A DNA stretch of 64,000 nucleotides from Acidobacteriota bacterium (lineage in GTDB: Bacteria; Acidobacteriota; UBA4820; DSQY01), in contig JAKAKG010000203.1 of NCBI GenBank assembly GCA_021813555.1, positions 3,507 to 67,506 of the forward strand, written 5' to 3'. The notes under the pieces are model-generated. The model was not told where the DNA came from. It did not search any database and was given only the letters and a program-made list of their open reading frames with translations. Of the stretch, positions 17,939 through 51,415 are shown piece after piece. The translations under genes were made by a program, and so were the position numbers. Numbering within the stretch: position 1 is the stretch's first letter; the number at the start of each line of letters is the position of its first letter.

Positions 17939-18754
17939 ATGGCCTTGCCCGAGCTTAACGCCGTCGTCGCCCAGCGCATCGAAGTGGCTCCCGGCCTCAT
18001 CATTCTCCGCGCGGCCCCAGAGGGATGGGCCCTGCCGGACTTCCACCCCGGCCAGTTCACGGTCATAGGCCTGCCCCCCAGCGCGCCCAGGTACGCCTTC
18101 TCGGACCCCGAGGACCCCCCGCTGGAGCCCGACAAGCTGATCAGGAGGGCCTACTCCATCGCCTCATCTTCGGTGGACAGGGAGTACATCGAGTTTTACG
18201 TGACGCTCGTCAACTCGGGGGCCCTTTCTCCGCGGATCTTCGCCCTCAAGGCGGGTGACCGCCTGTGGCTTTCGCCCAAGATGACCGGCATGTTCACCCT
18301 CAAGGAGGTCCCCGAGGACAAGAACGTCGCGCTGGTGGCCACCGGCACGGGCCTGGCTCCCTACATGAGCATGCTGCGCACCCTTTTGGAGCCGGGAGGG
18401 CCGAGACACTTTGCCGTGGTCCACGGCGCCAGGAGATCCTCGGACCTCGGGTACCGGTCGGAGCTGGTGACCCTACAGCGCATCTGCAAGAATTTCGCGT
18501 ACATCCCCGTCATCAGCAACCCCGAGGAAGATCCCGTTCCTTGGCTTCAGGCCACGGGTTGGGTTCAGGACATGTGGAACTCCGGGGCGGTGAACCGGGC
18601 CTGGGGGATGGAGGTGACTCCGGAGAACACGCACGTCTTCCTCTGCGGCAACCCCGCCATGGTGGAGACCATGGTCTCCATCTTAGAAGGCCAGGGGTTT
18701 TGCGAGCATACGCGCCATAAGCCCGGGCAGATCCATGTGGAGCGGTACTGGTAG
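17939..18754 (+). CDS. fpr: Ferredoxin--NADP+ reductase-type flavoprotein (FNR family)
   Basis: 271 aa with an FAD-binding RAYSIAS motif and an NAD(P)-binding GTGLAP motif. Confidence 0.8.
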   Translation: MALPELNAVVAQRIEVAPGLIILRAAPEGWALPDFHPGQFTVIGLPPSAPRYAFSDPEDPPLEPDKLIRRAYSIASSSVDREYIEFYVTLVNSGALSPRIFALKAGDRLWLSPKMTGMFTLKEVPEDKNVALVATGTGLAPYMSMLRTLLEPGGPRHFAVVHGARRSSDLGYRSELVTLQRICKNFAYIPVISNPEEDPVPWLQATGWVQDMWNSGAVNRAWGMEVTPENTHVFLCGNPAMVETMVSILEGQGFCEHTRHKPGQIHVERYW

Positions 18755-18761
18755 GCAAGAA

Positions 18762-18790
18762 GTGAGGAGTGAGGAGTGAGGAGTGAGGAG
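18762..18790. repeat. Tandem heptamer array (GTGAGGA)x4 between fpr stop and the GTG start of the recombinase gene
   Basis: Read directly from the sequence: gtgaggagtgaggagtgaggagtgaggag. The third unit supplies the GTG start of the downstream ORF. Confidence 0.9.
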
Positions 18791-19699
18791 AAGCGCCCGA
18801 ACGCCGAGGAAGGGAACGTCCCCTTTCCCAACGAATTGGCCCTGTTCCTGGATCACATGACCGTGGAACGGGGCCTCTCGCCCAGGTCGGTGGAAGCTTA
18901 CAGGAGCGACCTTCTCCGGTTTTTCGCCCACTGCAAGAAAGCACCGGCCGATGTGCGCCGGGAGGACGTGAGAGCGTTCATGGCGGGAGAACATTCCGCC
19001 AGGAGAGCTGCCTCCACGGCGGCCAGGCGCCTCGTGGCCATCCGTTCCTTTTATCGGTTTCTCATTCTGGAACGCAAGGTGCCGGCGGACCCCACGGAAA
19101 ACGTGGATCCCCCCAGGGCTCTCAAGCGGCTTCCCGGCTACCTCACGACGGAGGAGGTGGAGCGGCTCCTTGCCGTGCCCGATCCCTCCAGGCCTCTCGG
19201 GTTGCGCAACCGGGCCCTCCTGGAAGTCATGTACGCCACGGGAATCCGGGTCTCCGAGCTCACGGGCCTCACCCTCGATCGGACCAACGCCGAGGCGGGC
19301 TTCGTCCTGGTCATGGGCAAGGGAAGCAAGGAGCGCGTGGTGCCCTTGGGCGAGGTGGCCCAGGACTGGGTGGCGCGCTACCGGGCCGAAGCCAGGCCGC
19401 TGCTTCTCAAGGGCCGCTCCGCTCCGGCGCTCTTCGTGACGGCTCGCGGAGGGGGCATGACCCGGCAGATGGTGTGGATCATGATCACCTCAAGCGCCCG
19501 CGCCGCCGGCATCACCAAGCACCTGAGCCCGCACACCCTGAGGCACTCCTTCGCCACCCACCTGCTGGAGCACGGGGCAGACTTGCGCGCGGTCCAGATC
19601 CTCCTGGGCCACGCTGACATTTCAACGACCCAGATCTACACCCACCTGGAGCAGGAACGCCTCAAACGGATCTACAGGCAGTTCCATCCGCGGGCCTAG
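18776..19699 (+). CDS. Tyrosine site-specific recombinase, XerC/XerD family
   Basis: C-terminal catalytic motifs ([36 protein letters not shown]) are present. The GTG start lies inside the heptamer repeat. Confidence 0.85.
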
Positions 19700-34361: not shown

Positions 34362-34370
34362 GGGTCCGGG

Positions 34371-34394
34371 ATGAGGAGATGAGGAGATGAGGGG
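34371..34394. repeat. Tandem octamer array (ATGAGGAG)x3
   Basis: Read directly from the sequence: atgaggagatgaggagatgagggg, 10 nt after the SLT stop. Confidence 0.9.
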
Positions 34395-34465
34395 AAAGGG
34401 ACACCATGGCGGGCGACGAGAGAGCGGTCCCTCATGTCCGCGTCCCCCCATCCCCTCGTCTCGTC

Positions 34466-35578
34466 CTACTCTTCCAAGTCCTCGCGTTCCTGAGAGTTGA
34501 GCCGCGCCAAGGCGGAGCGGTAGGGCCAATCCTCGATGAAGCCCTCCTCCCGAAGCACTTGAAGCTTGGCACGGTGGTACTCCCAGTAGTCGTCCAGATG
34601 AATTTCATCCAGGCGATCGGCGAGGTGAACCAGGCGGGCGAACCAGCCGAGGGCCTCGCGGCGCGGCGCCCTGCGCCACCAGGGGAGGTAAGGAGTTCGG
34701 GCCGGCTGGGGACCCGCCGCCACTTCGACCGCCGCCCCCGTCAAGGCCGCGGCGCCAAGGGCAAAGACAAGGAACGCGCCGGCCGATCCCCAGATCCACG
34801 GTGTCAACGCCTCGCCGCCCCCCCGCGCCGCTTCGGCGGCAAGGGCGAGGCTGATGGCCCCCGCGCCCAAGGCCGGCCCGATGAAGACCCACGGGGCGCG
34901 CCAGGCCAGCCGGATGGGAGGTTCCAGGGAGGCCAGGGAAAAGAACATCCGGCTGGATCGGCCCAGCGGGCCTCTGCTTTCCAGGACCACCCGGTCGTAG
35001 AGAAATACACAGGTCCACAGGCTCATCGTTCCCCTGATGGCCAGGCGGCCCTGATCGAGGCCCTCGAATACGTTCTGTAGGGCGAACCGGTGTGCCGTCA
35101 CCCGGAGGTTCAGCTCTCCGAGGAAGTCCTCGAAGGAGCGCCCATCCAGTCCGTGAAACGCGGCGATCTCGTATCCGTCGTAGTCGAATACTTTGACCGT
35201 CCTGAGGCGTGCCTTCCAAACGAGGAGGGCCCAGGCGGCGCCCAAAACCGCCGCGTTAAGCCCCGTGAGGGCCTCGGATGGGCCAAGAAGGAAGGCTCCC
35301 GCGGCCCACGCCAGCGTGAGGATCGTGAGGATGGCCAGCTGCCACACCGGCAGGCTCTGGCTGCTGTAAGTGTCCCATATCTCCCCGTAGGGAATGATCT
35401 GCCTGTGGGTGGGCACGGAGGAGGTAAACTCCTCCCTCAACAAGCCCCTCCCGTCGAGGGTGAAGCGCACCAGGGTTCCAGCCCAGGGCCGCTCTTCGTG
35501 AACCAGAGACGCATCACGGGACACCGGGGTTGGCCTCCATGATGGTGGCCACGAGGGCCCGTGCAAAATCCCTGGCAA
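34466..35578 (-). CDS. Hypothetical polytopic membrane protein
   Basis: 370-aa ORF with several hydrophobic segments and no recognisable motif. It overlaps lptE by 65 nt, so the start is uncertain. Confidence 0.45.
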   Translation of the reverse strand: MPGILHGPSWPPSWRPTPVSRDASLVHEERPWAGTLVRFTLDGRGLLREEFTSSVPTHRQIIPYGEIWDTYSSQSLPVWQLAILTILTLAWAAGAFLLGPSEALTGLNAAVLGAAWALLVWKARLRTVKVFDYDGYEIAAFHGLDGRSFEDFLGELNLRVTAHRFALQNVFEGLDQGRLAIRGTMSLWTCVFLYDRVVLESRGPLGRSSRMFFSLASLEPPIRLAWRAPWVFIGPALGAGAISLALAAEAARGGGEALTPWIWGSAGAFLVFALGAAALTGAAVEVAAGPQPARTPYLPWWRRAPRREALGWFARLVHLADRLDEIHLDDYWEYHRAKLQVLREEGFIEDWPYRSALARLNSQEREDLEE

Positions 35579-36041
35579 CCACGTCGTAGGCCACCACCTC
35601 TTCGCTGATGTAGTTGCCGGGCGTCGAGGAGCGCTCGTAGACTTCGCTGAACCGGTATCCCTGGGACTCGAAGAGGACCTTCCCGTCGCGGCTGGCCAGA
35701 CGGACTTTCGCCGTCATGGTCACCTGGTACCGGTTGGCGCGGCCCGCCGAGTCGTAGGAAAGAGGCGCCACGCCGTAGCCCGTGATAGCTCCCGTAAGGA
35801 CCGCGTCAGCACCCTCCTTGGAAGACTGAACCTTCACGCGGGCGCGCTGGGCCAGCTCGCGGGTCACGGCCTCGGTAACCCGCTGGTCGAGCTGCAGGAC
35901 CGGCACTTGCCGCTCGAAGGGCAGGACGGCCACCACCTTCACCGACGGCGGCAGGGCGCCTCCCGTACCGAGCAAGTGATAGCCGCAAGCGGTGAAGAGA
36001 AGCATCACGGCCAGAGATGCGACGGCGAATCGAGCCCTCAT
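35514..36041 (-). CDS. lptE: LPS-assembly lipoprotein LptE (RlpB) family
   Basis: Lipobox (LLFTACG), 175 aa, and a position immediately downstream of leuS, the conserved leuS-lptE arrangement. Confidence 0.7.
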   Translation of the reverse strand: MRARFAVASLAVMLLFTACGYHLLGTGGALPPSVKVVAVLPFERQVPVLQLDQRVTEAVTRELAQRARVKVQSSKEGADAVLTGAITGYGVAPLSYDSAGRANRYQVTMTAKVRLASRDGKVLFESQGYRFSEVYERSSTPGNYISEEVVAYDVVARDFARALVATIMEANPGVP

Positions 36042-36067
36042 CTCCTCATCTCCTCATCTCGTCATCC
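36039..36067. repeat. Tandem octamer array (GATGAGGA)x4 on minus strand filling the leuS-lptE intergenic gap and supplying the lptE ATG
   Basis: The reverse complement reads gatgacgagatgaggagatgaggagatgagggc. The last unit contains the lptE start codon. Confidence 0.9.
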
Positions 36068-36072
36068 CTGTC

Positions 36073-38532
36073 CTACCGAACCACCAGGGTCACGATTTTC
36101 CCGGGAACCACCATCTCCTTGACGATCTGCTTCCCTTCAAGGTGGCCCGCCACCTTCTCGTTCGCTTTGGCCGCGGCCAGCACTTCTTCGGCACCTGCGT
36201 CCGCGGGCACGGTGATTTGCCCCCGCACCTTGCCGTTCACTTGCACCGCGAGGGTGATCTCGTCCTCCTTCGCAATGGCCGCTTGGGAGGATGGCCACGG
36301 GCCGTCCACGAGGAATCCGTCGTGACCCAACATCTGCCACAGGGCGTCCGCGATGTGCGGGGAAAAGGGCGAGAGCATGGCCACGAGGGATTCCACGGCT
36401 TCCCGAAGCACGTAGCGCTCCTGGGGCGTCTTCCTGTAGCTCGCCAGGTAACCCTGCGCGGCGTTGACCAGTTCCATCAGTCCCGCGATGGCCGTGTTGA
36501 TCTTGAGGCGGTGGTCCAGCTCGGCCGTCACCTTGGCAATGGTCTGGTGGGTCTTGCGCCGCAAGAGAGGCACCTCCCCTCGCGGCTCCTGGACGGGTCC
36601 CTTCAGATCCTCGGCCAGGTCCTCCACCAGGGCATAGACCCGGTTGAGAAAGCGATAGGCGCCCTCGGCGCCGCTGTCTTTCCAGTCGAGCTGGTCCCAG
36701 GGCGGCGAGAGGAAGAGCATGTTCAGCCGGACCGCGTCAGCCCCGTAGCGGACGATCATGTCGTCGGGCTCCACGAGGTTGCCCAGGCTCTTGCTCATCT
36801 TGGCCCCGTCCTTGATGACCATCCCCTGGCACATGAGGCGCTTGACGGGTTCGCCGAAGGGCACGAGGCCCAAATCGCGCAGGACCATCGTGAAGAAGCG
36901 GCAGTAGATGAGGTGCATGGTGGCGTGTTCGATGCCGCCGATGTAGAAGTCCACCGGAGTCCAGTAGCGCACCGCCTCGCCCTCGAACGGCGCACTCTCT
37001 TCGCGCGGGCTGCAGTAGCGAAAGAAGTACCAGGAAGAATCCACGAACGTGTCCATGGTGTCCGTCTCGCGGCGGGCCTCCCTTCCGCAGGCGGGACACG
37101 CCGCCTTCACGAAACCCTCGTGGGTGGCCAGGGGGCTCTCGCCCTTGCCGGTGAACGCCACGTCTTGCGGGAGGAGGACGGGAAGCTGGTCCTCAGGCAC
37201 GGGAACGGTACCGCAGACCGGGCAGTGGACGATGGGGATGGGGGTGCCCCAATACCGCTGCCGAGAGATACCCCAGTCTTTGATGCGGTAAGTGACGGTG
37301 GGTTCTCCGAAGCCCCTCTCCTTGGCGAAGGCACCCATGACCGCCATGGCCTCCCGGTTGGGCAGGCCCGTGTAGGGCCCGCTGGATTCGAGCACGCCGT
37401 CCGCCGGGGCCGCCTCCGCAAGCCGGTCCGACTCCAGGCCCCCGCTCTGAACCACCACCCGGATGGGCAACCCATAGGCTTTCGCGAATTCGAAGTCCCG
37501 CTGGTCGTGGGCCGGGACGCTCATGATGGCGCCCGTGCCGTAGTCCATGAGGACGAAGTTGGCCAGGTAGATGGGGATGCGCTCGCCGGAAAAGGGATTG
37601 ATGGCGAAGGCTCCCGTGAAGACGCCCTCCTTCTCCTTGCTGGTGGACCGGTCGTGGGTGCTCTGGGCGCGGACCCTGGCCTGGAACGTCTCCACGGCGG
37701 GGCGCCTGTCCTGAAGGGTGACACGGCGGGCCGCCGGGTGCTCGGGCGCCAGCACCAGGAAAGTCGCGCCGTAGATGGTGTCGATGCGCGTGGTGAACAC
37801 GCGGATGGGCTCCGCCTGTCCTTCCACGGCGAAGTCCACGAAGGCACCCTCGGAGCGGCCGATCCAGTTACGCTGCATGGCCGCCACTTCGGGAGGCCAC
37901 TGGCCCAGCGCGTCCAGGTCGTCGAGCAGCTCCTGGGCGTAGTCCGTGATGCGCAGGAACCACTGCTCCATTTCCTTGACCGTGACGGCGTTGTGGCAGC
38001 GCCAGCACGTCCCGTCTTCCACCTGCTCGTTGGCCAGAACCGTGGCGCAATCGGGACACCAGTTCACGGAGCGCTTGGCCCGGTAACACAGGCCCCTCTC
38101 GAACATCTTGAGAAAGAACCACTGGTTCCAGCGGTAGTACCGGGGCTCGCACGTGCGCACTTCGCGGGTCCAGTCGTAAAGGAATCCCATGCGCCGCAAC
38201 TGGCCCTTCATCGTGGCGATGTTGGCGTCGGTCCACGCCTTGGGGTGCGCTCCGCCCTTGATGGCCGCGTTTTCCGCCGGGAGCCCGAAGGCGTCAAATC
38301 CCATAGGGTGGAGGACGTTTTTGCCCCGCATGCGCTGGTAGCGCGCCACCACGTCGCCGATGGTGTAGTTGCGAACGTGGCCCATATGGATCTTGCCGGA
38401 CGGGTACATGAACATTTCAAGGCAGTAGAACGGTGTCCGGGACGGATCCTCCGCCACGGTGGCTACGCCCGCTTCTTCCCACCCCTGCTGGAAGCGGAGC
38501 TCGACGGCGTGTGGATCGTAGGGCATGCGCAC
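36073..38532 (-). CDS. leuS: Leucyl-tRNA synthetase
   Basis: 819 aa with a HIGH motif (HMGHVRNY) and a KMSKS motif. Confidence 0.95.
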   Translation of the reverse strand: MRMPYDPHAVELRFQQGWEEAGVATVAEDPSRTPFYCLEMFMYPSGKIHMGHVRNYTIGDVVARYQRMRGKNVLHPMGFDAFGLPAENAAIKGGAHPKAWTDANIATMKGQLRRMGFLYDWTREVRTCEPRYYRWNQWFFLKMFERGLCYRAKRSVNWCPDCATVLANEQVEDGTCWRCHNAVTVKEMEQWFLRITDYAQELLDDLDALGQWPPEVAAMQRNWIGRSEGAFVDFAVEGQAEPIRVFTTRIDTIYGATFLVLAPEHPAARRVTLQDRRPAVETFQARVRAQSTHDRSTSKEKEGVFTGAFAINPFSGERIPIYLANFVLMDYGTGAIMSVPAHDQRDFEFAKAYGLPIRVVVQSGGLESDRLAEAAPADGVLESSGPYTGLPNREAMAVMGAFAKERGFGEPTVTYRIKDWGISRQRYWGTPIPIVHCPVCGTVPVPEDQLPVLLPQDVAFTGKGESPLATHEGFVKAACPACGREARRETDTMDTFVDSSWYFFRYCSPREESAPFEGEAVRYWTPVDFYIGGIEHATMHLIYCRFFTMVLRDLGLVPFGEPVKRLMCQGMVIKDGAKMSKSLGNLVEPDDMIVRYGADAVRLNMLFLSPPWDQLDWKDSGAEGAYRFLNRVYALVEDLAEDLKGPVQEPRGEVPLLRRKTHQTIAKVTAELDHRLKINTAIAGLMELVNAAQGYLASYRKTPQERYVLREAVESLVAMLSPFSPHIADALWQMLGHDGFLVDGPWPSSQAAIAKEDEITLAVQVNGKVRGQITVPADAGAEEVLAAAKANEKVAGHLEGKQIVKEMVVPGKIVTLVVR

Positions 38533-39829: not shown

Positions 39830-41491
39830 ATGGCGCAGGTGCAAGCCAGCCGCGGAGAGCTTTGGAAGAAATACTACGACATCAGCCAGGACCAGCTCCA
39901 GGAGCTGGACCGCCAGATCGAGGCACTCGGGCAGGCGCCCTGGGAACAAGGTCCCCTGAGATCGGTCCAGCGCGTATTCCACAACTTCTCCGGTTCGGGC
40001 GCCTTGTACTCCGCTCCCCAGGTTAGCGCCCTGGGCGGGGAAGGCGAATACATGTGCTCGAGCATCCTTCTGGCGGGGCGGGCCATCGGTGAGGGTGAGC
40101 TCCAGCAGATCGAAAGCCTCGTGCGCCGAATCCGAGCCGAGTTCCAGAACCTCATGAACGCCGCGGCCAAAGCGTCCGCGCGTCCGGCCAAACCCGCGCG
40201 GGGCATTCCCCTCCTGTTCCTCCTCGCCCCCGAGACTCCCGAAACCAAGGCCCTTGCGGAGTACCTGAGCAAGCGGCGCGTCCAGGTGGAAATCCTGCCC
40301 ACCCTGGCCGTAGCCGAGCGGAGGCTGGACGCGGGCCTGCCCGATCTCGTGGCCGTCAGCCTCAAACTGGACGGCGGGTCGGCCTACGATTTCGTGCGAA
40401 GCCTGAGGATCATCGAAGGGGAGCCTTCCATCCCCGTTCTTCTCCTTGGCGAGAGCCAGCGGTTCCTGGACAAGGTCGAGGCCATCCACTGCGGCGCCGA
40501 TGGATTCGTGGCGGCCCCTCCCGACCCCGCCACCGTTCTCAAAAAGTTCAAGGCCGTTATGGCCAAGCACAAGGGGGTGGCCTCGAAGATCCTGGTGGTC
40601 GAGGACGACCCCGCCCAGGCGCGCTTCGTGGAGGAGTGCCTCGTGACGGGCGGGTATCAGGTCAGCGTCTGCCAGGACCCGTCTCTTTTTGAGGCCGACC
40701 TCTACGCGTTCCACCCCGCCCTGGTCTTGATGGACGTTCTCCTTCCGGGCGCCAGCGGGTACGACCTGGTGCGATTCATGCGGCAGGAGGAGGGCTTCGC
40801 GGCGATCCCCGTCATCTTCATCACGACCGAGGGGCAGCGCCGCAGCCAGATCCTCGCCGCCGAAGCGGGGGGCGACGACTTCCTGGCCAAGCCCGTCACG
40901 GCGGAGGATCTTCTCTCCATCGTTCGGTCAAGGCTGGCAAGGCACAGGAGCCTGCAGGACCTGATGGATCACGACGACCTGACGGGACTACTGGCTCACA
41001 CGCCCTTCCTGCGCGAGGCTCGCCTCTGCCTGACCCGTTACAGCCGTCGGAAAATCGCTTACGCCGCGGTTTTGTTCCGGGTGGATCGCCTGGATGAATA
41101 CGGGGCTCGTTACGGCGCCAAGGCCGGGGACACACTCGTGGTGGGCCTCGCCAAGTTTCTCCAGCGGAAAATTCGCCAGACCGACGTCATGGGCCGATAC
41201 GGAGACCAAGAACTCGCGGTGGTCCTGGAACATCTCTCGGAGACCGACGCCCTGAGGCTCATCCAGCGCCTGCAGCAGGAGTTCCAATCCATCGAACACC
41301 CCCTCGGGGGGGATCGCAACCTCCGGGCCACGTTCAGCGCCGGCATCGCCATGACCGGCCCCGACATGAAGACCCTCAAGGACTGGCTCGATCGCGCGGG
41401 CGCGGCCCTCCAAGACGCCATTCGGCAGGGCGGGAACCGGACGATCTTTTTCGGGCGAGCCGGCGGCGAGGCTACTTCCCCATCACCCTGA
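39830..41491 (+). CDS. Response regulator with tandem receiver domains and degenerate GGDEF domain (active-site motif replaced by GDQEL)
   Basis: 553 aa containing two REC-like domains (ILVVEDD...D...K) and a C-terminal GGDEF fold that ends in RYGDQELAV instead of GGDEF/GGEEF. Confidence 0.8.
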   Translation: MAQVQASRGELWKKYYDISQDQLQELDRQIEALGQAPWEQGPLRSVQRVFHNFSGSGALYSAPQVSALGGEGEYMCSSILLAGRAIGEGELQQIESLVRRIRAEFQNLMNAAAKASARPAKPARGIPLLFLLAPETPETKALAEYLSKRRVQVEILPTLAVAERRLDAGLPDLVAVSLKLDGGSAYDFVRSLRIIEGEPSIPVLLLGESQRFLDKVEAIHCGADGFVAAPPDPATVLKKFKAVMAKHKGVASKILVVEDDPAQARFVEECLVTGGYQVSVCQDPSLFEADLYAFHPALVLMDVLLPGASGYDLVRFMRQEEGFAAIPVIFITTEGQRRSQILAAEAGGDDFLAKPVTAEDLLSIVRSRLARHRSLQDLMDHDDLTGLLAHTPFLREARLCLTRYSRRKIAYAAVLFRVDRLDEYGARYGAKAGDTLVVGLAKFLQRKIRQTDVMGRYGDQELAVVLEHLSETDALRLIQRLQQEFQSIEHPLGGDRNLRATFSAGIAMTGPDMKTLKDWLDRAGAALQDAIRQGGNRTIFFGRAGGEATSPSP

Positions 41492-42461
41492 GCAGGTGCC
41501 TCTCGACGATGGCCCAGGGCGGCCCGGGGTCCCCCTTCAAGGCCAAATCCAGCTCGAAGAGGGCACCCAAGGTTTTCCGGACGCGCGCCTCGGGCCACTT
41601 GGACGCGACGCCGAGGAGCTTCTGGGCCGGGTACGGATGGTTGAACCCCAGGCTCCTGAAGGGAATGTCCCGCCGCTCCGCCCCTCGCGCTTCCAGACCG
41701 TGCATGAGCAACAGGGACCTGAGCTGCTTGGCGAGCATGCCCACGAAGAGGAGGGGCACCGAATCGGGATCCTGGGCGATACGCTGCAGGAGGTCGAGAA
41801 AGGGCCTCACCTCGCCCTTGAGGAAAGCATCCTGCAAATCCCATTGCTGAGGCGTCCCGCCGGCGCCTAAAAGGGCCTCCACGTCCTCCGCTTCAAGGCG
41901 CTTCTCCTCGTTCCTGTATAGGCACAAAAGGTCCAAGGCGGAGACGAGCCTCCCCACGTCTCCGCAGGACCATTCCTCCAGGGCCGTAGCGGCCGCCGGG
42001 GCGATGGAGAAGCCTTCGGCGCGCAGGCGCTTGGCCACGTACTCGCGGCCGCCGCGAGGCGTGCACGATCGGGTGGGAACCTTGTCCATGAGGGCTTTCC
42101 AACGCGCCGGGACCTTCTTATCGGAGAGGTCCCCTACCACTTCGACGAGCAGGGCGGTGGATGTCGCGGGGTTGTCCAGATATCGGCCGAGGGCCTTGAT
42201 CAGATCGTCGGAGGCCGATTCGGCCTGCCTGAGGCGAACCACCTGGCGCTCGCTCCACATGGGAAGGGTATTGAGCTCGACGCCGAGCTGCCCCGGATCG
42301 AGACCCGCCGCCGAAAGATTGGTCGCTCCGTCCTCACCGCCCCACCGCTCGGCCCATCCGCGGGAGACTTCATCCAGGAAGCGGCCGTCCTCCGCCCATA
42401 TGAGAAGGTTCTGCGGATAGCTCCCCGCCCCCGCCTTCTCCTTCTTCTCCTCACTCCGCAC
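41472..42461 (-). CDS. holA: DNA polymerase III delta subunit-like (HolA)
   Basis: 329 aa with a delta-subunit-like pattern. The GTG start lies inside the heptamer array. The assignment is moderate. Confidence 0.6.
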   Translation of the reverse strand: MRSEEKKEKAGAGSYPQNLLIWAEDGRFLDEVSRGWAERWGGEDGATNLSAAGLDPGQLGVELNTLPMWSERQVVRLRQAESASDDLIKALGRYLDNPATSTALLVEVVGDLSDKKVPARWKALMDKVPTRSCTPRGGREYVAKRLRAEGFSIAPAAATALEEWSCGDVGRLVSALDLLCLYRNEEKRLEAEDVEALLGAGGTPQQWDLQDAFLKGEVRPFLDLLQRIAQDPDSVPLLFVGMLAKQLRSLLLMHGLEARGAERRDIPFRSLGFNHPYPAQKLLGVASKWPEARVRKTLGALFELDLALKGDPGPPWAIVERHLLRVMGK

Positions 42462-42538
42462 TCCTCGCTCCTTTTTCTTTTCCCTTTTCCCTTTTCACTT
42501 CTCACTTTTCACTTTTTACTTCTTACTTTTCACTCCTC
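42462..42538. repeat. Heptamer array (~11 units GTGARAA / GGGAAAA / GAGTGAG on minus strand) between oppC stop and holA start
   Basis: The reverse complement reads ggaggagtgaaaagtaagaagtaaaaagtgaaaagtgagaagtgaaaagggaaaagggaaaagaaaaaggagcgaggag. The oppC TGA stop and the holA GTG start both lie within repeat units. Confidence 0.9.
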
Positions 42539-43615
42539 CGCCCTCGGGTCCAGTGCGTCGCGGACCCCTTCGCCCACGAGATTGTACGACAGAACCGTGA
42601 GGAAGATGGCGGCGCCCGGGAAGAGGCCCAGCCACCACTCGTCCCAGTAGCGCGTCACGAGGCTGAGGATGTTGCCCCAGGAAGGATCGGGGGGCTGGAC
42701 CCCAACGCCCAGGAAGGAGATGGCCGCTTCCATGAGGACGGCTCCCGCCACGTCGAAGGTGGCGTTCACCAGGAGGGGCGTCATGGCGTTGGGCAGGATG
42801 TGCCGCAAGGCCAGGCGAAGGGGCGAGGCGCCCAGCGCCTTGGCCGCGGCCACGAAGTCGGCTCCTTTCATGCGCATGAATTCGGCCCGGGCGTACCTCG
42901 CCATGCCCGTCCAGGAGGTGGCGGCGATGACCACGGTGATGGTCCAAATGTTGAGGTACTTGGGGTCCATGACCGCCACCGCCGCGAGAATGAGGAAGAA
43001 GGTGGGAAAGCAGGCCATGACTTCGATCAGCCTTGATACGATGAGGAGATCCAGCCAGCCGCCGGCGTAGCCGGCCGCGGCCCCCACCGCCACGCCCAGG
43101 AGGCCCGAGAGGCCCACGGCCAGGAGGCCCACGAGCAGGGACACCTTGGCCCCGTGCAGAACCCTGCTCAGCACGTCCCGGCCGCTGTCGTCACAGCCGA
43201 AATAGTGGCCGGTGCGCCAAGACGGCGGCGTGTTCACGTCGTCGAGGCGCTGCTGGAGGGGCGAGAAGGGGACCGGCGGAAGGAGAACGGAGCTGACCTT
43301 GGGATCGGGACGGGTCCTCTGGTTGAGGAGCCAGTCCGGATCCTCCACGAGGCGCAGGCTCACGGCGTCCCGCTTCAGAAGGCGATTGAGAGGGAACAGG
43401 CCGCGGAAGGCCGTAAAACGGGCTACCCCTTCGTAACGGATGAAGAGCGGTTCGTTGTTGGCCAGGAGCGGAGCGAAGTACGCCGCGAGCGCCAGAAGGA
43501 GAAGGAACGCGAGCCCCCGCGCCGCCCCTCTGCGCCGGGCGAAGGTCTGGAAGGCCGAAGGCCCCGGCGCGCCGTCTTGCGCGTTGTCTTTGTCGCGCGG
43601 TCCCGCGGTCTCCAT
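42530..43615 (-). CDS. ABC peptide transporter permease (DppC/OppC type)
   Basis: The track ORF 42530..44206 is trimmed to the ATG at 43615 (METAGPRDKD), which overlaps the stop of the upstream permease. A binding-protein-dependent transport signature is present. Confidence 0.85.
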   Translation of the reverse strand: METAGPRDKDNAQDGAPGPSAFQTFARRRGAARGLAFLLLLALAAYFAPLLANNEPLFIRYEGVARFTAFRGLFPLNRLLKRDAVSLRLVEDPDWLLNQRTRPDPKVSSVLLPPVPFSPLQQRLDDVNTPPSWRTGHYFGCDDSGRDVLSRVLHGAKVSLLVGLLAVGLSGLLGVAVGAAAGYAGGWLDLLIVSRLIEVMACFPTFFLILAAVAVMDPKYLNIWTITVVIAATSWTGMARYARAEFMRMKGADFVAAAKALGASPLRLALRHILPNAMTPLLVNATFDVAGAVLMEAAISFLGVGVQPPDPSWGNILSLVTRYWDEWWLGLFPGAAIFLTVLSYNLVGEGVRDALDPRAEE

Positions 43616-43617
43616 CC

Positions 43618-44667
43618 CTACTCCAGCCTCACCCTTGGATCGGCCACGGTGTACGCCACGTCCGTCGCGAGGTTTGAAAGGAGAACCGCCACGGCGCCCA
43701 TGAGCGACTCGGCCATGATGAGGGGATAGTCGCGGCTGTAAATGGCCTTGATGTACATCTGGCCCAGGCCCGGCCAGGAGAAGATCTGCTCGATGATGAC
43801 GCTGCCCGAGATGAGAGCGGGCAGGAGGATTCCCGAGAGGGTCAGGAGCGGGATCAGCGCGTTGCGAAGTCCGTGCCGGTAGAGGACGGCCGCTTCGCTC
43901 ACCCCCTTGGCCCGTGCCGTGCGGATGTAATCCTGGCTCAGCACGTCCAGGAGGGCACCCCGGGCGAACCGGGACAAGAATGCGAGCCCGCCGTAGCTCA
44001 GGCAGAGGGCCGGCAAAGCGGCGTGCTTGAGGAGGTCCCAGGCTTTGCCCGCCGCGGACATGGCCTCGAACCCATCGGAGCGCATGCCTATAAACGGCAG
44101 CCACTGAAGCCTGACTCCGACCAGGAGGATGAGGAGGATGGCCACCCAGAAATTGGGTAGCGAGTAAAGCACGTAAAGGGCCGCTGAGCTGGCCCTGTCG
44201 AACCATCCCCCTTGCCTGGCCGCCGCATGAAACCCCGCGGGGACGGCCACCACGACCATGAGGAAGAGCGCCAGAGCGTTGAGAAATAAGGTCGCCGCGA
44301 ACTTGCTGCTCAAGACCTGATTCAGGGCCGACCGCAAGGAGCCGCCTTCCGCTAGGACGCGCGCCGGCGCGTTGAAGAACACCTCAGAGACGGGCCGCCG
44401 CTCCGAGAAGGAGTCGCCGAGGGATCCCGTGGCCAGGGTCCCCAGCCATCTCCCGTACTGGACGTACCACGGCCGGTCCAGCCCGTATCGCGTCAAGAGG
44501 ATTTGGTAGTCTTGGGGATTCATCTGCCGAACGGCGGCTTCGCCCGAGGCCTGCGCCGCGGAGAAAGGATTGCCCGGGGCCAGTTTCATCACCGCGAAGA
44601 CCACCGCAGTGATGAGAAGCACCGTGGGCACCATGAGCACAGCGCGGCGAGTGAGGTAGCTCAGCAC
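43618..44667 (-). CDS. ABC peptide transporter permease (DppB/OppB type)
   Basis: 349 aa, 6-TM permease pattern. Confidence 0.85.
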   Translation of the reverse strand: MLSYLTRRAVLMVPTVLLITAVVFAVMKLAPGNPFSAAQASGEAAVRQMNPQDYQILLTRYGLDRPWYVQYGRWLGTLATGSLGDSFSERRPVSEVFFNAPARVLAEGGSLRSALNQVLSSKFAATLFLNALALFLMVVVAVPAGFHAAARQGGWFDRASSAALYVLYSLPNFWVAILLILLVGVRLQWLPFIGMRSDGFEAMSAAGKAWDLLKHAALPALCLSYGGLAFLSRFARGALLDVLSQDYIRTARAKGVSEAAVLYRHGLRNALIPLLTLSGILLPALISGSVIIEQIFSWPGLGQMYIKAIYSRDYPLIMAESLMGAVAVLLSNLATDVAYTVADPRVRLE

Positions 44668-50486: not shown

Positions 50487-51299
50487 ATGTCGATGGACTA
50501 TTTCCAATACCTGCGCAAAGAGCGCATGCCGCACATCTGGTGCCCCGGCTGCGGCCACGGCACCATCATGAAATCCATCCTGCGGGCCCTGGACAAGCTC
50601 AAGTGGGCCAAGGATGACGTGGTGGTGGTTTCTGGAATCGGCTGCAGCAGCAGAACACCGGGCTACCTGGACTTCAACACCCTTCACACGACCCACGGCC
50701 GCGCCCTCTCCTTCGCCCAGGGTGTCAAAGTGGCCAACCCCAACCTCAAGGTGATCGTCATCTCCGGAGACGGAGACGCCATGGCCATCGGAGGCAACCA
50801 CTTCATTCACGCCTGCCGGCGCAACATGGACATCACCCTCATCGTCTTCAACAACAACATCTACGGGATGACCGGCGGACAGGCTTCCCCCACCACCTTC
50901 ACGGGCTCCAAGGGCACCACCGCCCCCTACGGCGCCATCGAGCAGCCCTTCGACGTGTGCAACATGGCCCAGGCCTCGGGCGCCACCTACGTGGCCCGCG
51001 CCCTGGACATCGACGCCGTCGCCATGGACCGCGTCATCCTGTCAGCCCTGCAGAACAAGGGATTCTCCGTCGTGGACGCCTGGTCTCAGTGCACCACCTA
51101 CTTCGGCCGCCAGAACAAATGGGGCGACGCCTCCGAGATGATGGACCGGTACAAGGAAATGACCTACAACGTCCGCCTCGCCGAGAAAATGAGCCCCGAA
51201 GAGAAAGCCGGGAAATACCCCGTGGGGATGCTCTTCCAGACCTCCCGCCCGGAATGGTGCGAGGAGTACGGCAAGCTGATTGAGAGAGTGAGCAAGTGA
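50487..51299 (+). CDS. korB: 2-oxoacid:ferredoxin oxidoreductase beta subunit (TPP-binding)
   Basis: Motifs CPGCGHG, GIGCSS and GDGD in the TPP-binding region. Confidence 0.9.
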   Translation: MSMDYFQYLRKERMPHIWCPGCGHGTIMKSILRALDKLKWAKDDVVVVSGIGCSSRTPGYLDFNTLHTTHGRALSFAQGVKVANPNLKVIVISGDGDAMAIGGNHFIHACRRNMDITLIVFNNNIYGMTGGQASPTTFTGSKGTTAPYGAIEQPFDVCNMAQASGATYVARALDIDAVAMDRVILSALQNKGFSVVDAWSQCTTYFGRQNKWGDASEMMDRYKEMTYNVRLAEKMSPEEKAGKYPVGMLFQTSRPEWCEEYGKLIERVSK

Positions 51300-51415
51300 G
51301 GAAGTGAGGAGTGAGGAGTAAATAGTGAAAAGTGAAAAGTAAAAAGCGAGCCCTCAACAGCGGGCCGCGTTCCTTCCCACTCTTCACTTTTCACTTTTAA
51401 CTTTTCTTTTAAAGG
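51296..51415. repeat. Inverted heptamer arrays (GTGAGGA x3, GTGAAAA x2, GTAAAAA on plus; TCTTCAC, TTTTCAC, TTTTAAC downstream) forming a long imperfect hairpin with T-rich 3' arm, between korB and korC
   Basis: Read directly from the sequence. The korB TGA stop lies within the first heptamer, and the downstream arm is the reverse complement of the GTGAAAA units. Confidence 0.85.

Follow-up and report, generated by a model that had tools for sequence, protein, structure and literature searches.

Between the stop codon of an oppC-like permease gene and the start codon of holA, the Acidobacteriota DNA analysed here (64,000 nucleotides of contig JAKAKG010000203.1, assembly GCA_021813555.1; this whole stretch is referred to as the window) carries a run of tandem heptanucleotides that extends into both coding sequences. 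This raises the questions of how such a repeat arose, whether holA really starts within it and what, if anything, it does to the expression of the two genes.

The junction, its two arrays and the holA start codon

Both genes lie on the minus strand. The upstream one (42530..43609) encodes an oppC-like ABC permease, with Pfam matches to BPD_transp_1 (1.5e-28) and OppC_N, and an NCBIfam match to Opp4C (1.5e-79) that stays under the equivalog cut-off. An exact look-up of its 359-aa product gave no record, because gene callers start two codons upstream, at the GTG at 43615, and obtain 361 aa (L005, L006). The downstream gene, holA (41472..42461), encodes the DNA polymerase III delta subunit, a protein of 329 aa with the N-terminus MRSEEKKEKAGAGSYPQNLLIW. 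It matches TIGR01128 above the cut-off (1.9e-42) as well as Pfam DNA_pol3_delta and DNA_pol3_delta_C, and the same 329-aa protein was called by the gene callers in four data sources, namely ENA, NCBI, Logan and JGI. A response-regulator/GGDEF gene (39830-41491, plus strand) converges with holA, the two 3' ends overlapping by 20 nt (41472-41491); this overlap is also called in L005-L008.

On the minus strand, oppC ends in GCG GAG GAG TGA and is followed by a 68-nt spacer that reads AAAGTAA GAAGTAA AAAGTGA AAAGTGA GAAGTGA AAAGGGA AAAGGGA AAAGAAA AAGGAGC GAGGA, after which holA begins with GTG CGG AGT GAG GAG AAG AAG GAG AAG. The last oppC codons, GAG GAG TGA, provide the first repeat unit, GGAGTGA (42530..42536), in which the stop TGA (42530-42532) overlaps a GTG (GTGA); the same unit closes oppC in L001, L002 and L249-L253. 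The next eight units (42474..42529), of five variants, form the A-rich sub-array, supported by TRF, shuffles and composition. It is followed by a GGAG-type sub-array, AAGGAGC GAGGAGT GCGGAGT GAGGAGA A (42445..42473), delimited by TRF, which carries the Shine-Dalgarno sequence (SD) of holA, AAGGAG (42468..42473, 6 nt 5' of the GTG), the start codon and codons 2-5. A GGAG at the position of the SD is also present in L001, L002, L254 and L255. The A-rich part is confined to the spacer; GGAG-type units alone overlap the last two oppC codons and the first five holA codons.

TRF resolved the tract into two adjacent period-7 arrays: an A-rich one at 42477-42534 (8.3 copies, 86% matches, score 74), the longest period-7 array of the window, and a GGAG-type one at 42447-42472 (3.7 copies, 84% matches, score 38). 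Their registers are offset by 2 nt because of the A-run that joins them, and together they amount to about 12-13 units. A preliminary description of this DNA had reported, for 42462-42538, a single array of about 11 heptamer units, the longest of its kind, in which a first GAGTGAA unit includes the oppC stop and further units form the holA GTG and its next four codons. The count was a fair one and the heptameric period is real, as are the rank of the array, the TGA (42530-42532) within GGAGTGA/GAGTGAA and, at the other end, the GTG (42459-42461) followed by CGG AGT GAG GAG, which are GGAGTGN units; the idea of one array has to be given up in favour of two. The region had also been called unusually AT-rich, and indeed the 56-nt A-rich core has a GC content of 30% vs. 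65% for the window. This core is 91% purine, contains no C and has T at the GT position alone, its antisense strand being C/U-rich and nearly G-free.

Chance expectation was obtained from 100 dinucleotide-preserving shuffles of the window, in which period-7 and period-8 arrays with a score of at least 40 were counted. Seven such arrays were observed vs. a mean of 0.02 per shuffle, and the top score among the 100 shuffles was 41 vs. 74 for the oppC-holA array. A chance origin of the array is excluded. An assembly artefact was rejected as well, the identical 68-nt spacer being present in independent ENA and NCBI assemblies; the Logan contig L008 begins inside the array and matches the rest of it exactly. 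A MITE or other mobile insertion was also discarded: the tract has neither inverted termini nor a target duplication, and its alleles differ by about three and about four units. A perfect 20-nt homopurine mirror repeat, GAAAAGGGAAAAGGGAAAAG, was detected by script within the array (42477-42496). It has the sequence that H-DNA requires, a potential which is a by-product of the repeat.

As for the start of holA, the preliminary description had placed it at the GTG of the array and had named a downstream ATG (MWSERQ) as the alternative that would overturn this choice. The GTG (42459..42461) is the first start of the ORF, and N-terminal alignment shows a conserved GTG or ATG in orthologues: GTG in six further loci (L001, L002, L254, L255, L256 and L258) and ATG in L004, 16 residues before QN. 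Forty-four HolA homologues were found, and all 17 that were aligned with the window HolA conserve PQNLLIWA.D.RF...PMWSERQVVRLRQ (block PQNLLIWA.D..F...PMWSERQ). The downstream ATG, Met68, was rejected, since it would cut off this block; no in-frame ATG, GTG or TTG lies between the holA GTG and the block. The TIGR01128 alignment begins at residue 45, which corresponds to profile position 30. Judging from the aligned N-termini, the holA start is GTG 42459-42461, as first proposed. Concerning the codons that follow, MRSEEK or VRSEEK N-termini occur in homologues of 70-72% identity (P0003, P0004, P0007, P0010), with the related MRNDEK and MRGDEN in others of the same range. This recurrence argues that the R-S-E-E codons are an old conserved tail and not a recent spill-over of the array.

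A 101-aa ORF that starts inside the array (42200-42505, minus strand) was rejected as a gene: it overlaps holA out of frame, is arginine-rich and has no SD. Within it, a second GTG (42452-42454, minus strand), 7 nt 3' of the holA start and in the +1 frame, opens an arginine-rich out-of-frame reading frame; with GAGGAG 6 nt upstream, it is as well placed as the holA start. It is missing in L001, where the unit has GCG. This GTG could be a decoy initiation site.

Orthologous junctions and origin of the spacer

HolA-based searches provided orthologous loci of three kinds: Acidobacteriota MAG loci, exact-protein loci and loci of 70-73% homologues. The 68-nt spacer is identical in the window and in L005, L006, L007, L251, L252 and L253, with a holA nucleotide divergence of 0-0.9%. 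It measures 48 nt in L002, L249 and L250 (7.3% divergence from the window), 39 nt in L001 (8.9%) and 10 nt in L255, L256, L257 and L258, whose HolA proteins are 70-72% identical to that of the window; L003 and L004 (66-72%) have a short spacer and no array. The A-rich segment is 29 nt shorter in L001 and 20 nt shorter in L002, that is about four and about three units (29 = 4x7+1, 20 = 3x7-1), and it is absent from L003, L004, L255, L256 and L258. All the length variation lies 5' of the SD, the AAGGAG/GGAG-N6-GTG spacing being constant in all alleles. Unit number thus differs between sister lineages (39, 48 and 68 nt), not among the seven near-identical assemblies: up to a divergence of 0.9%, strains keep the same array, and present-day slippage at it is slow.

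Most relatives at about 70% HolA identity have a 10-nt junction of the form TGA-GGAGCGAGGA-GTG-AGG-AGY-GAG-GAG (e.g. AGC for AGY). The 10-nt junctions are themselves period-7, TRF giving 3.9-4.4 copies of GAGTGAG or GAGGAGC over stop, SD and start (orthologous arrays of this size are named for L254, L255 and L258, the spacer being 10 nt in the latter two), and a GGAG-type array of about four units is therefore taken as ancestral. In L254, the spacer reaches 107 nt and contains three arrays: AAAGTGA x5.3, which adjoins the TGA, CCCCTGT x4.4, whose unit is unrelated, and last GTGAGGA x4.1. The HolA of this locus (P0004) shares 85-87% identity with P0002 and P0003, proteins of 10-nt-spacer loci, but no more than 71% with the window HolA. 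The expansion at the oppC-holA junction therefore occurred at least twice. On sequence comparison, the tract is two things: an old, conserved GGAG-type proto-array of stop, SD and start, and a young A-rich expansion inserted into it.

The reading that we hold to be reasonably probable is that of a slippage-grown intergenic heptanucleotide repeat, which would have replaced a junction with coupled translation by a purine leader devoid of structure. About four GGAGTGA-like units make up the ancestral-type junction; the first of them carries the oppC stop, and the SD, the GTG of holA and its codons 2-5 follow in the next ones. Inside this already heptamer-periodic junction, the repeat would have grown by replication slippage or by unequal exchange: in the window's clade, A-rich unit derivatives of the AAAGTGA type multiplied between the unit with the stop and that with the SD. 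Identical variant units neighbour each other (GTAA GTAA / GTGA GTGA GTGA / GGGA GGGA), which is the pattern to be expected of a stepwise duplication of adjacent units by slippage. Bacterial intergenic regions contain an excess of heptameric SSRs, whose length at a given junction varies among close relatives and which have been ascribed to polymerase slippage (PMC4692102). Two points go against a slippage or neutral account: 56 nt free of C in a 65% GC genome may reflect selection on composition, and slippage at one junction leaves the wide recurrence of the AGTGARR unit and of the 7-nt period unexplained.

Expression of holA across the junction

A scan of both strands of 41300-43000 detected no sigma70-like -35/-10 pair and no intrinsic terminator in or near the spacer, and the order oppA-oppB-oppC-holA is kept down to 70% identity; on these grounds, oppC and holA would be co-transcribed. 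An Rfam scan of both strands of 41000-44000 gave nothing relevant (a gyrA RNA match elsewhere was sub-threshold, E = 0.62). The minimum free energy of the folded junction RNA indicates no structure beyond that of shuffles (z = +0.91), and a test for terminator-, REP- or MITE-like hairpins found neither an inverted repeat nor a stable hairpin in the array.

In E. coli and Haloferax, termination-reinitiation coupling is almost abolished at a stop-start distance of about 20 nt (PMC10666635). At 10 nt, L255, L256 and L258 lie within the coupling distance (about 10-20 nt or less), and the window, at 68 nt, lies outside it; coupling is therefore possible at the ancestral junction of 10 nt and not at that of 68 nt. 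Lengthening of the spacer from 10 to 68 nt would thus remove the coupling, ribosomes would initiate de novo on holA at its own AAGGAG-N6-GTG, and the purine-only, C-free leader, unable to pair with itself, would keep the holA ribosome-binding site open.

The accessibility of this site was computed as the mean unpaired probability from -16 to +12, by a partition-function calculation under a thermodynamic model. The predicted value is 0.50 with the array and 0.27 when the A-rich units are deleted in silico. For 100 random spacers matched to it in length and with a genome-like composition, the value was 0.32 +/- 0.07, a single one of them reaching 0.50, and natural short-spacer orthologues have predicted values of 0.31-0.40. 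Most likely, holA translation would thus have become independent of oppC translation, with a de novo start on an open leader. The array probably loosens the translational linkage between oppC and holA rather than switching it. Its effect on translation may be slight or nil, fitness is probably little affected, if at all, and the array is best regarded as a tolerated, slowly evolving length variant.

How far these observations leave room for other readings depends on what each of them predicts. A purely neutral expansion, persisting in an unconstrained spacer and affecting neither oppC nor holA expression, would agree with the free variation of presence, absence and length among relatives, with the lack of conserved structure and with the arrays of arbitrary units at the relatives' other junctions. 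We regard it as unlikely all the same: reinitiation coupling should be lost when the stop-start distance grows from 10 to 68 nt (PMC10666635), the predicted accessibility of the ribosome-binding site is above that of 99 of the 100 random spacers, and a strictly purine, C-free composition is unexpected under drift in a 65% GC genome. An element acting on DNA or transcription, be it an internal promoter or UP-like element for holA, H-DNA, or a C-rich, G-poor antisense RNA for Rho loading, could be suspected from the 30% GC of the core in a 65% GC genome, the perfect 20-nt homopurine mirror repeat and the C/U-rich, nearly G-free antisense strand. It is nevertheless highly improbable, since both strands of 41300-43000 lack a sigma70-like pair, the almost T-free sense strand makes hexamers like TTGACA or TATAAT impossible, and the array is dispensable, the relatives' holA beginning 10 nt after oppC, with no space for a promoter. 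Most improbable of all is a phase-variable contingency locus, in which frequent and reversible gain or loss of 7-nt units would alter the expression of holA, or of oppC and holA, within a population. Unit number does differ between sister lineages (39, 48 and 68 nt), and the start of the Logan contig L008 inside the array could mark an assembly break at a polymorphic site, which is a weak hint at most. However, the array is identical in seven assemblies from different samples (0-0.9% holA divergence) and so is not a hypermutable switch; its units are imperfect (86% matches), which suppresses slippage, and the length changes, all 5' of the SD, leave the SD-start spacing as it was. Looked for in the seven assemblies and all alleles, none of the three features of such loci was found, i.e. 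unit variation among close strains, a near-perfect tract, or a changed frame, promoter or SD spacing. Moreover, holA is an essential housekeeping gene, unlike the surface or restriction-modification genes that are usually phase-variable.

Related arrays and known repeat systems

The array upstream of holA is one of several such repeats. The seven period-7/8 arrays with a score of at least 40 in the 64-kb window are all built on [AG]TGA[AG][AG]. Besides the A-rich oppC-holA heptamer (42477-42534), they comprise a perfect AGTGAGG x4.3 (18761-18790), a GATGAGGA array (34370-34392) and an array of its reverse complement (36036-36066), a AGTGAGGA array (51287-51317), an AAGTGAA array (51302-51346) and an inverted copy of the latter (51378-51406). 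In GGAGTGA arrays, each GGAG stands 6 nt before the GTG of the next unit, each GTG forms with the following A a GTGA start/stop overlap, and TGA reaches all three frames within three units.

The array at 18761-18790 (plus strand) sits between the stop of an FNR-like oxidoreductase gene (TAG, 18752-18754) and a XerC/D-like tyrosine recombinase gene (18776-19699), whose best start is the third GTG of the array; its first codons, GTG AGG AGT GAG GAG AAG, give MRSEEK, as in HolA. The upstream GTGs open mini-ORFs (MRSEE*), the TGA of which overlaps the GTG two units downstream. In the case of the 2-oxoacid:ferredoxin oxidoreductase beta-like gene (50487-51299), the stop lies inside an array that passes from GGAG-type to A-rich units (51287-51346, plus strand). 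About 30 nt after it, and just before the gamma-subunit gene (51449), comes the inverted (CACTTTT)n (51378-51406). The arrays at 51287-51406 fold in silico as a long hairpin (MFE -50.7 kcal/mol, z = -3.96, none of 200 shuffles as stable), a possible terminator, attenuator or processing site within an operon. As for the octamer (GATGAGGA)n arrays, at 34363-34395 and 36035-36073, they are inverted with respect to each other over 27 nt, with 96% complementarity and 1641 nt apart, and they flank lptE (35514-36041, minus strand) and a gene without Pfam match (34466-35578, minus strand). The last unit of the array at 36036 provides the ATG of the lptE lipoprotein gene, directly after leuS; this array has 3.9 copies in L001 and 4.9 in L002.

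Arrays with 7- or 8-nt units also occupy gene junctions of the relatives at about 70% HolA identity (L254: 18-228, 1302-1335 and 2383-2515; L004: 1963-1997 and 3144-3178; L256: 1424-1458). Those of L003 (3575-3793, 6961-7243 and 11006-11050) have unrelated units, namely GAGCCGGA, CGTAAGA, GATGACCT and ATCCCAC. GAGCCAAC x4 is found at the oppB-oppC junction of two lineages, L004 and L254, and in L254 an 8-mer x25, with a 42-nt higher-order period, precedes oppB. The relatives' junctions carry many arrays with unrelated units, and the tendency to grow arrays thus seems to be a property of the clade, the unit sequence being unconserved.

A scan with the pattern AGTGARR x4 retrieved at least 120 metagenome stretches (L009-L128) and at least 120 viral stretches (L129-L248), the contigs having, among the matches listed, a GC content of 0.38-0.69. 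Several viral contigs carry three to five AGTGARR arrays each, beside AT-rich heptamer arrays of the TCATTAA/TCATTGA type. An inverted partner within 150 nt accompanies 19 of the 282 AGTGARR arrays among the matches listed.

This recurrence brings in a further reading, by which a trans-acting RNA-binding protein (S1, cold-shock or CsrA-like) would bind the GGAGTGA, AAAGTGA and GATGAGGA arrays, all of which would then belong to a single post-transcriptional regulon. Seven related arrays in 64 kb, all at gene boundaries, are in its favour, as are the sense orientation of the purine strand relative to the flanking gene in six of the seven, the GGA motif that recurs every 7 nt in GGAG-type units and the precedent proposed for the TAACTGA repeats of Beggiatoaceae (PMC4679880). 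A census against crude ORF calls adds 69 sense vs. 26 antisense AGTGARR arrays between co-directional ORFs among the matches listed, and this ratio is the one part of the census to which some weight, though not much, is given: the census is biased, TGA occurring in every frame of the purine strand, so that upstream ORFs end at the array start by construction. Even so, we find this regulon distinctly unlikely. The array is absent from the oppC-holA junction of most relatives at about 70% identity, and their unrelated units (GAGCCGGA, CGTAAGA, GATGACCT, CCCCTGT and others) go against a conserved recognition sequence; the downstream genes (holA, the xerC/D-like recombinase, lptE and the oxidoreductase gamma subunit) share no obvious function; and the candidate protein is hypothetical. 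A bolder idea, and a very unlikely one in our view, is that the clade uses hepta- and octamer junction arrays as an evolvable translational device, the oppC-holA array being one rheostat setting for a low-abundance clamp-loader subunit. Were this the case, ribosomes coming from the upstream gene would be stopped in any frame and then passed on via mini-ORFs (MRSEE*) or released, and the share of upstream translation handed downstream would be set by unit number and by the switch from GGAG-type to A-rich units; in another form of the idea, the arrays would be read by a dedicated RNA-binding factor.

Returning to slippage growth of a spacer repeat, the importance of the single locus is low: the start codon of holA is settled and the repeat proves to be a length variant that evolves slowly instead of a switch. 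Its interest lies in the orthologous series, in which a compact, heptamer-periodic stop-SD-start junction of 10 nt is expanded to 39, 48, 68 and 107 nt across lineages. This series offers a natural set of alleles for how spacer length and composition affect translational coupling. The finding also draws attention to an uncultured Acidobacteriota clade whose gene boundaries are unusually rich in 7- and 8-nt arrays, and it extends the still unexplained over-representation of bacterial heptameric repeats to another phylum.

The repeats of the hmw1A/hmw2A type in Haemophilus influenzae are perfect, hypervariable within populations and in control of surface adhesins. The array studied here is unlike them in being imperfect, invariant among near-identical strains and placed before a housekeeping gene. 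What the two have in common is a 7-nt tandem repeat in a 5' leader, the copy number of which could in principle tune expression, as in the phase variation of the hmw1A and hmw2A adhesin genes by 7-bp SSRs located upstream (PMC12721329, PMC8262952). Compared with termination-reinitiation junctions, the ancestral-type TGA-N10-GTG, with GGAG in its spacer, fits the short-distance class, whereas the 68 nt of the window are far past the collapse point of about 20 nt (PMC10666635).

The TAACTGA direct repeats of marine Beggiatoaceae closely precede start codons; they cover 169 loci, with 2-6 copies of a unit that does not vary (PMC4679880). As in the present case, the unit includes stop codons and the downstream genes are functionally unrelated, some of them essential; the translational role proposed there is hypothetical (PMC4679880). 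Among the window arrays, position and orientation agree with such a network for four of the seven. In contrast to TAACTGA, which replaces the canonical SD, a canonical AAGGAG SD belongs to the array here, and the units are not fixed but degenerate, from GGAG type to A-rich, with unrelated units in the relatives.

Heptamer repeats are also described in Geobacter (PMC2700814) and in cyanobacteria, where STRR or contiguous heptamers lie near or over start codons genome-wide in Calothrix and Nostoc and are suspected of a regulatory role (bioRxiv 10.1101/2022.06.06.494920). The likeness to the latter is in this position, and the AT-rich TCATTAA/TCATTGA-type arrays which AGTGAAR arrays adjoin on viral contigs may be compared with cyanobacterial STRR; the phylum differs and the genome is GC-rich.

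A literature search with the literal unit sequences returned irrelevant eukaryotic matches only. The Xanthomonas repeat GGGAATC and the Nostoc repeat GGGGA(T/C)T are examples of over-represented intergenic heptanucleotide SSRs (Mrazek et al. 2007, cited in PMC4692102). They too are tandem 7-nt intergenic units with many arrays per genome and occasional inverted pairs, which occupy the same junction in related genomes with extensive variation in length and sequence and are ascribed to polymerase slippage. The unit found here, GGAGTGA or AAAGTGA, differs from theirs in that it does not form G-quadruplexes, has a purine-only sense strand and embeds stop, SD and start. The array nevertheless shows all four characteristics of an intergenic heptanucleotide SSR (STRR-like), with at least three tandem copies beyond chance, an intergenic position, several arrays per genome and copy variation at the same junction, and it belongs to this described but poorly understood class.
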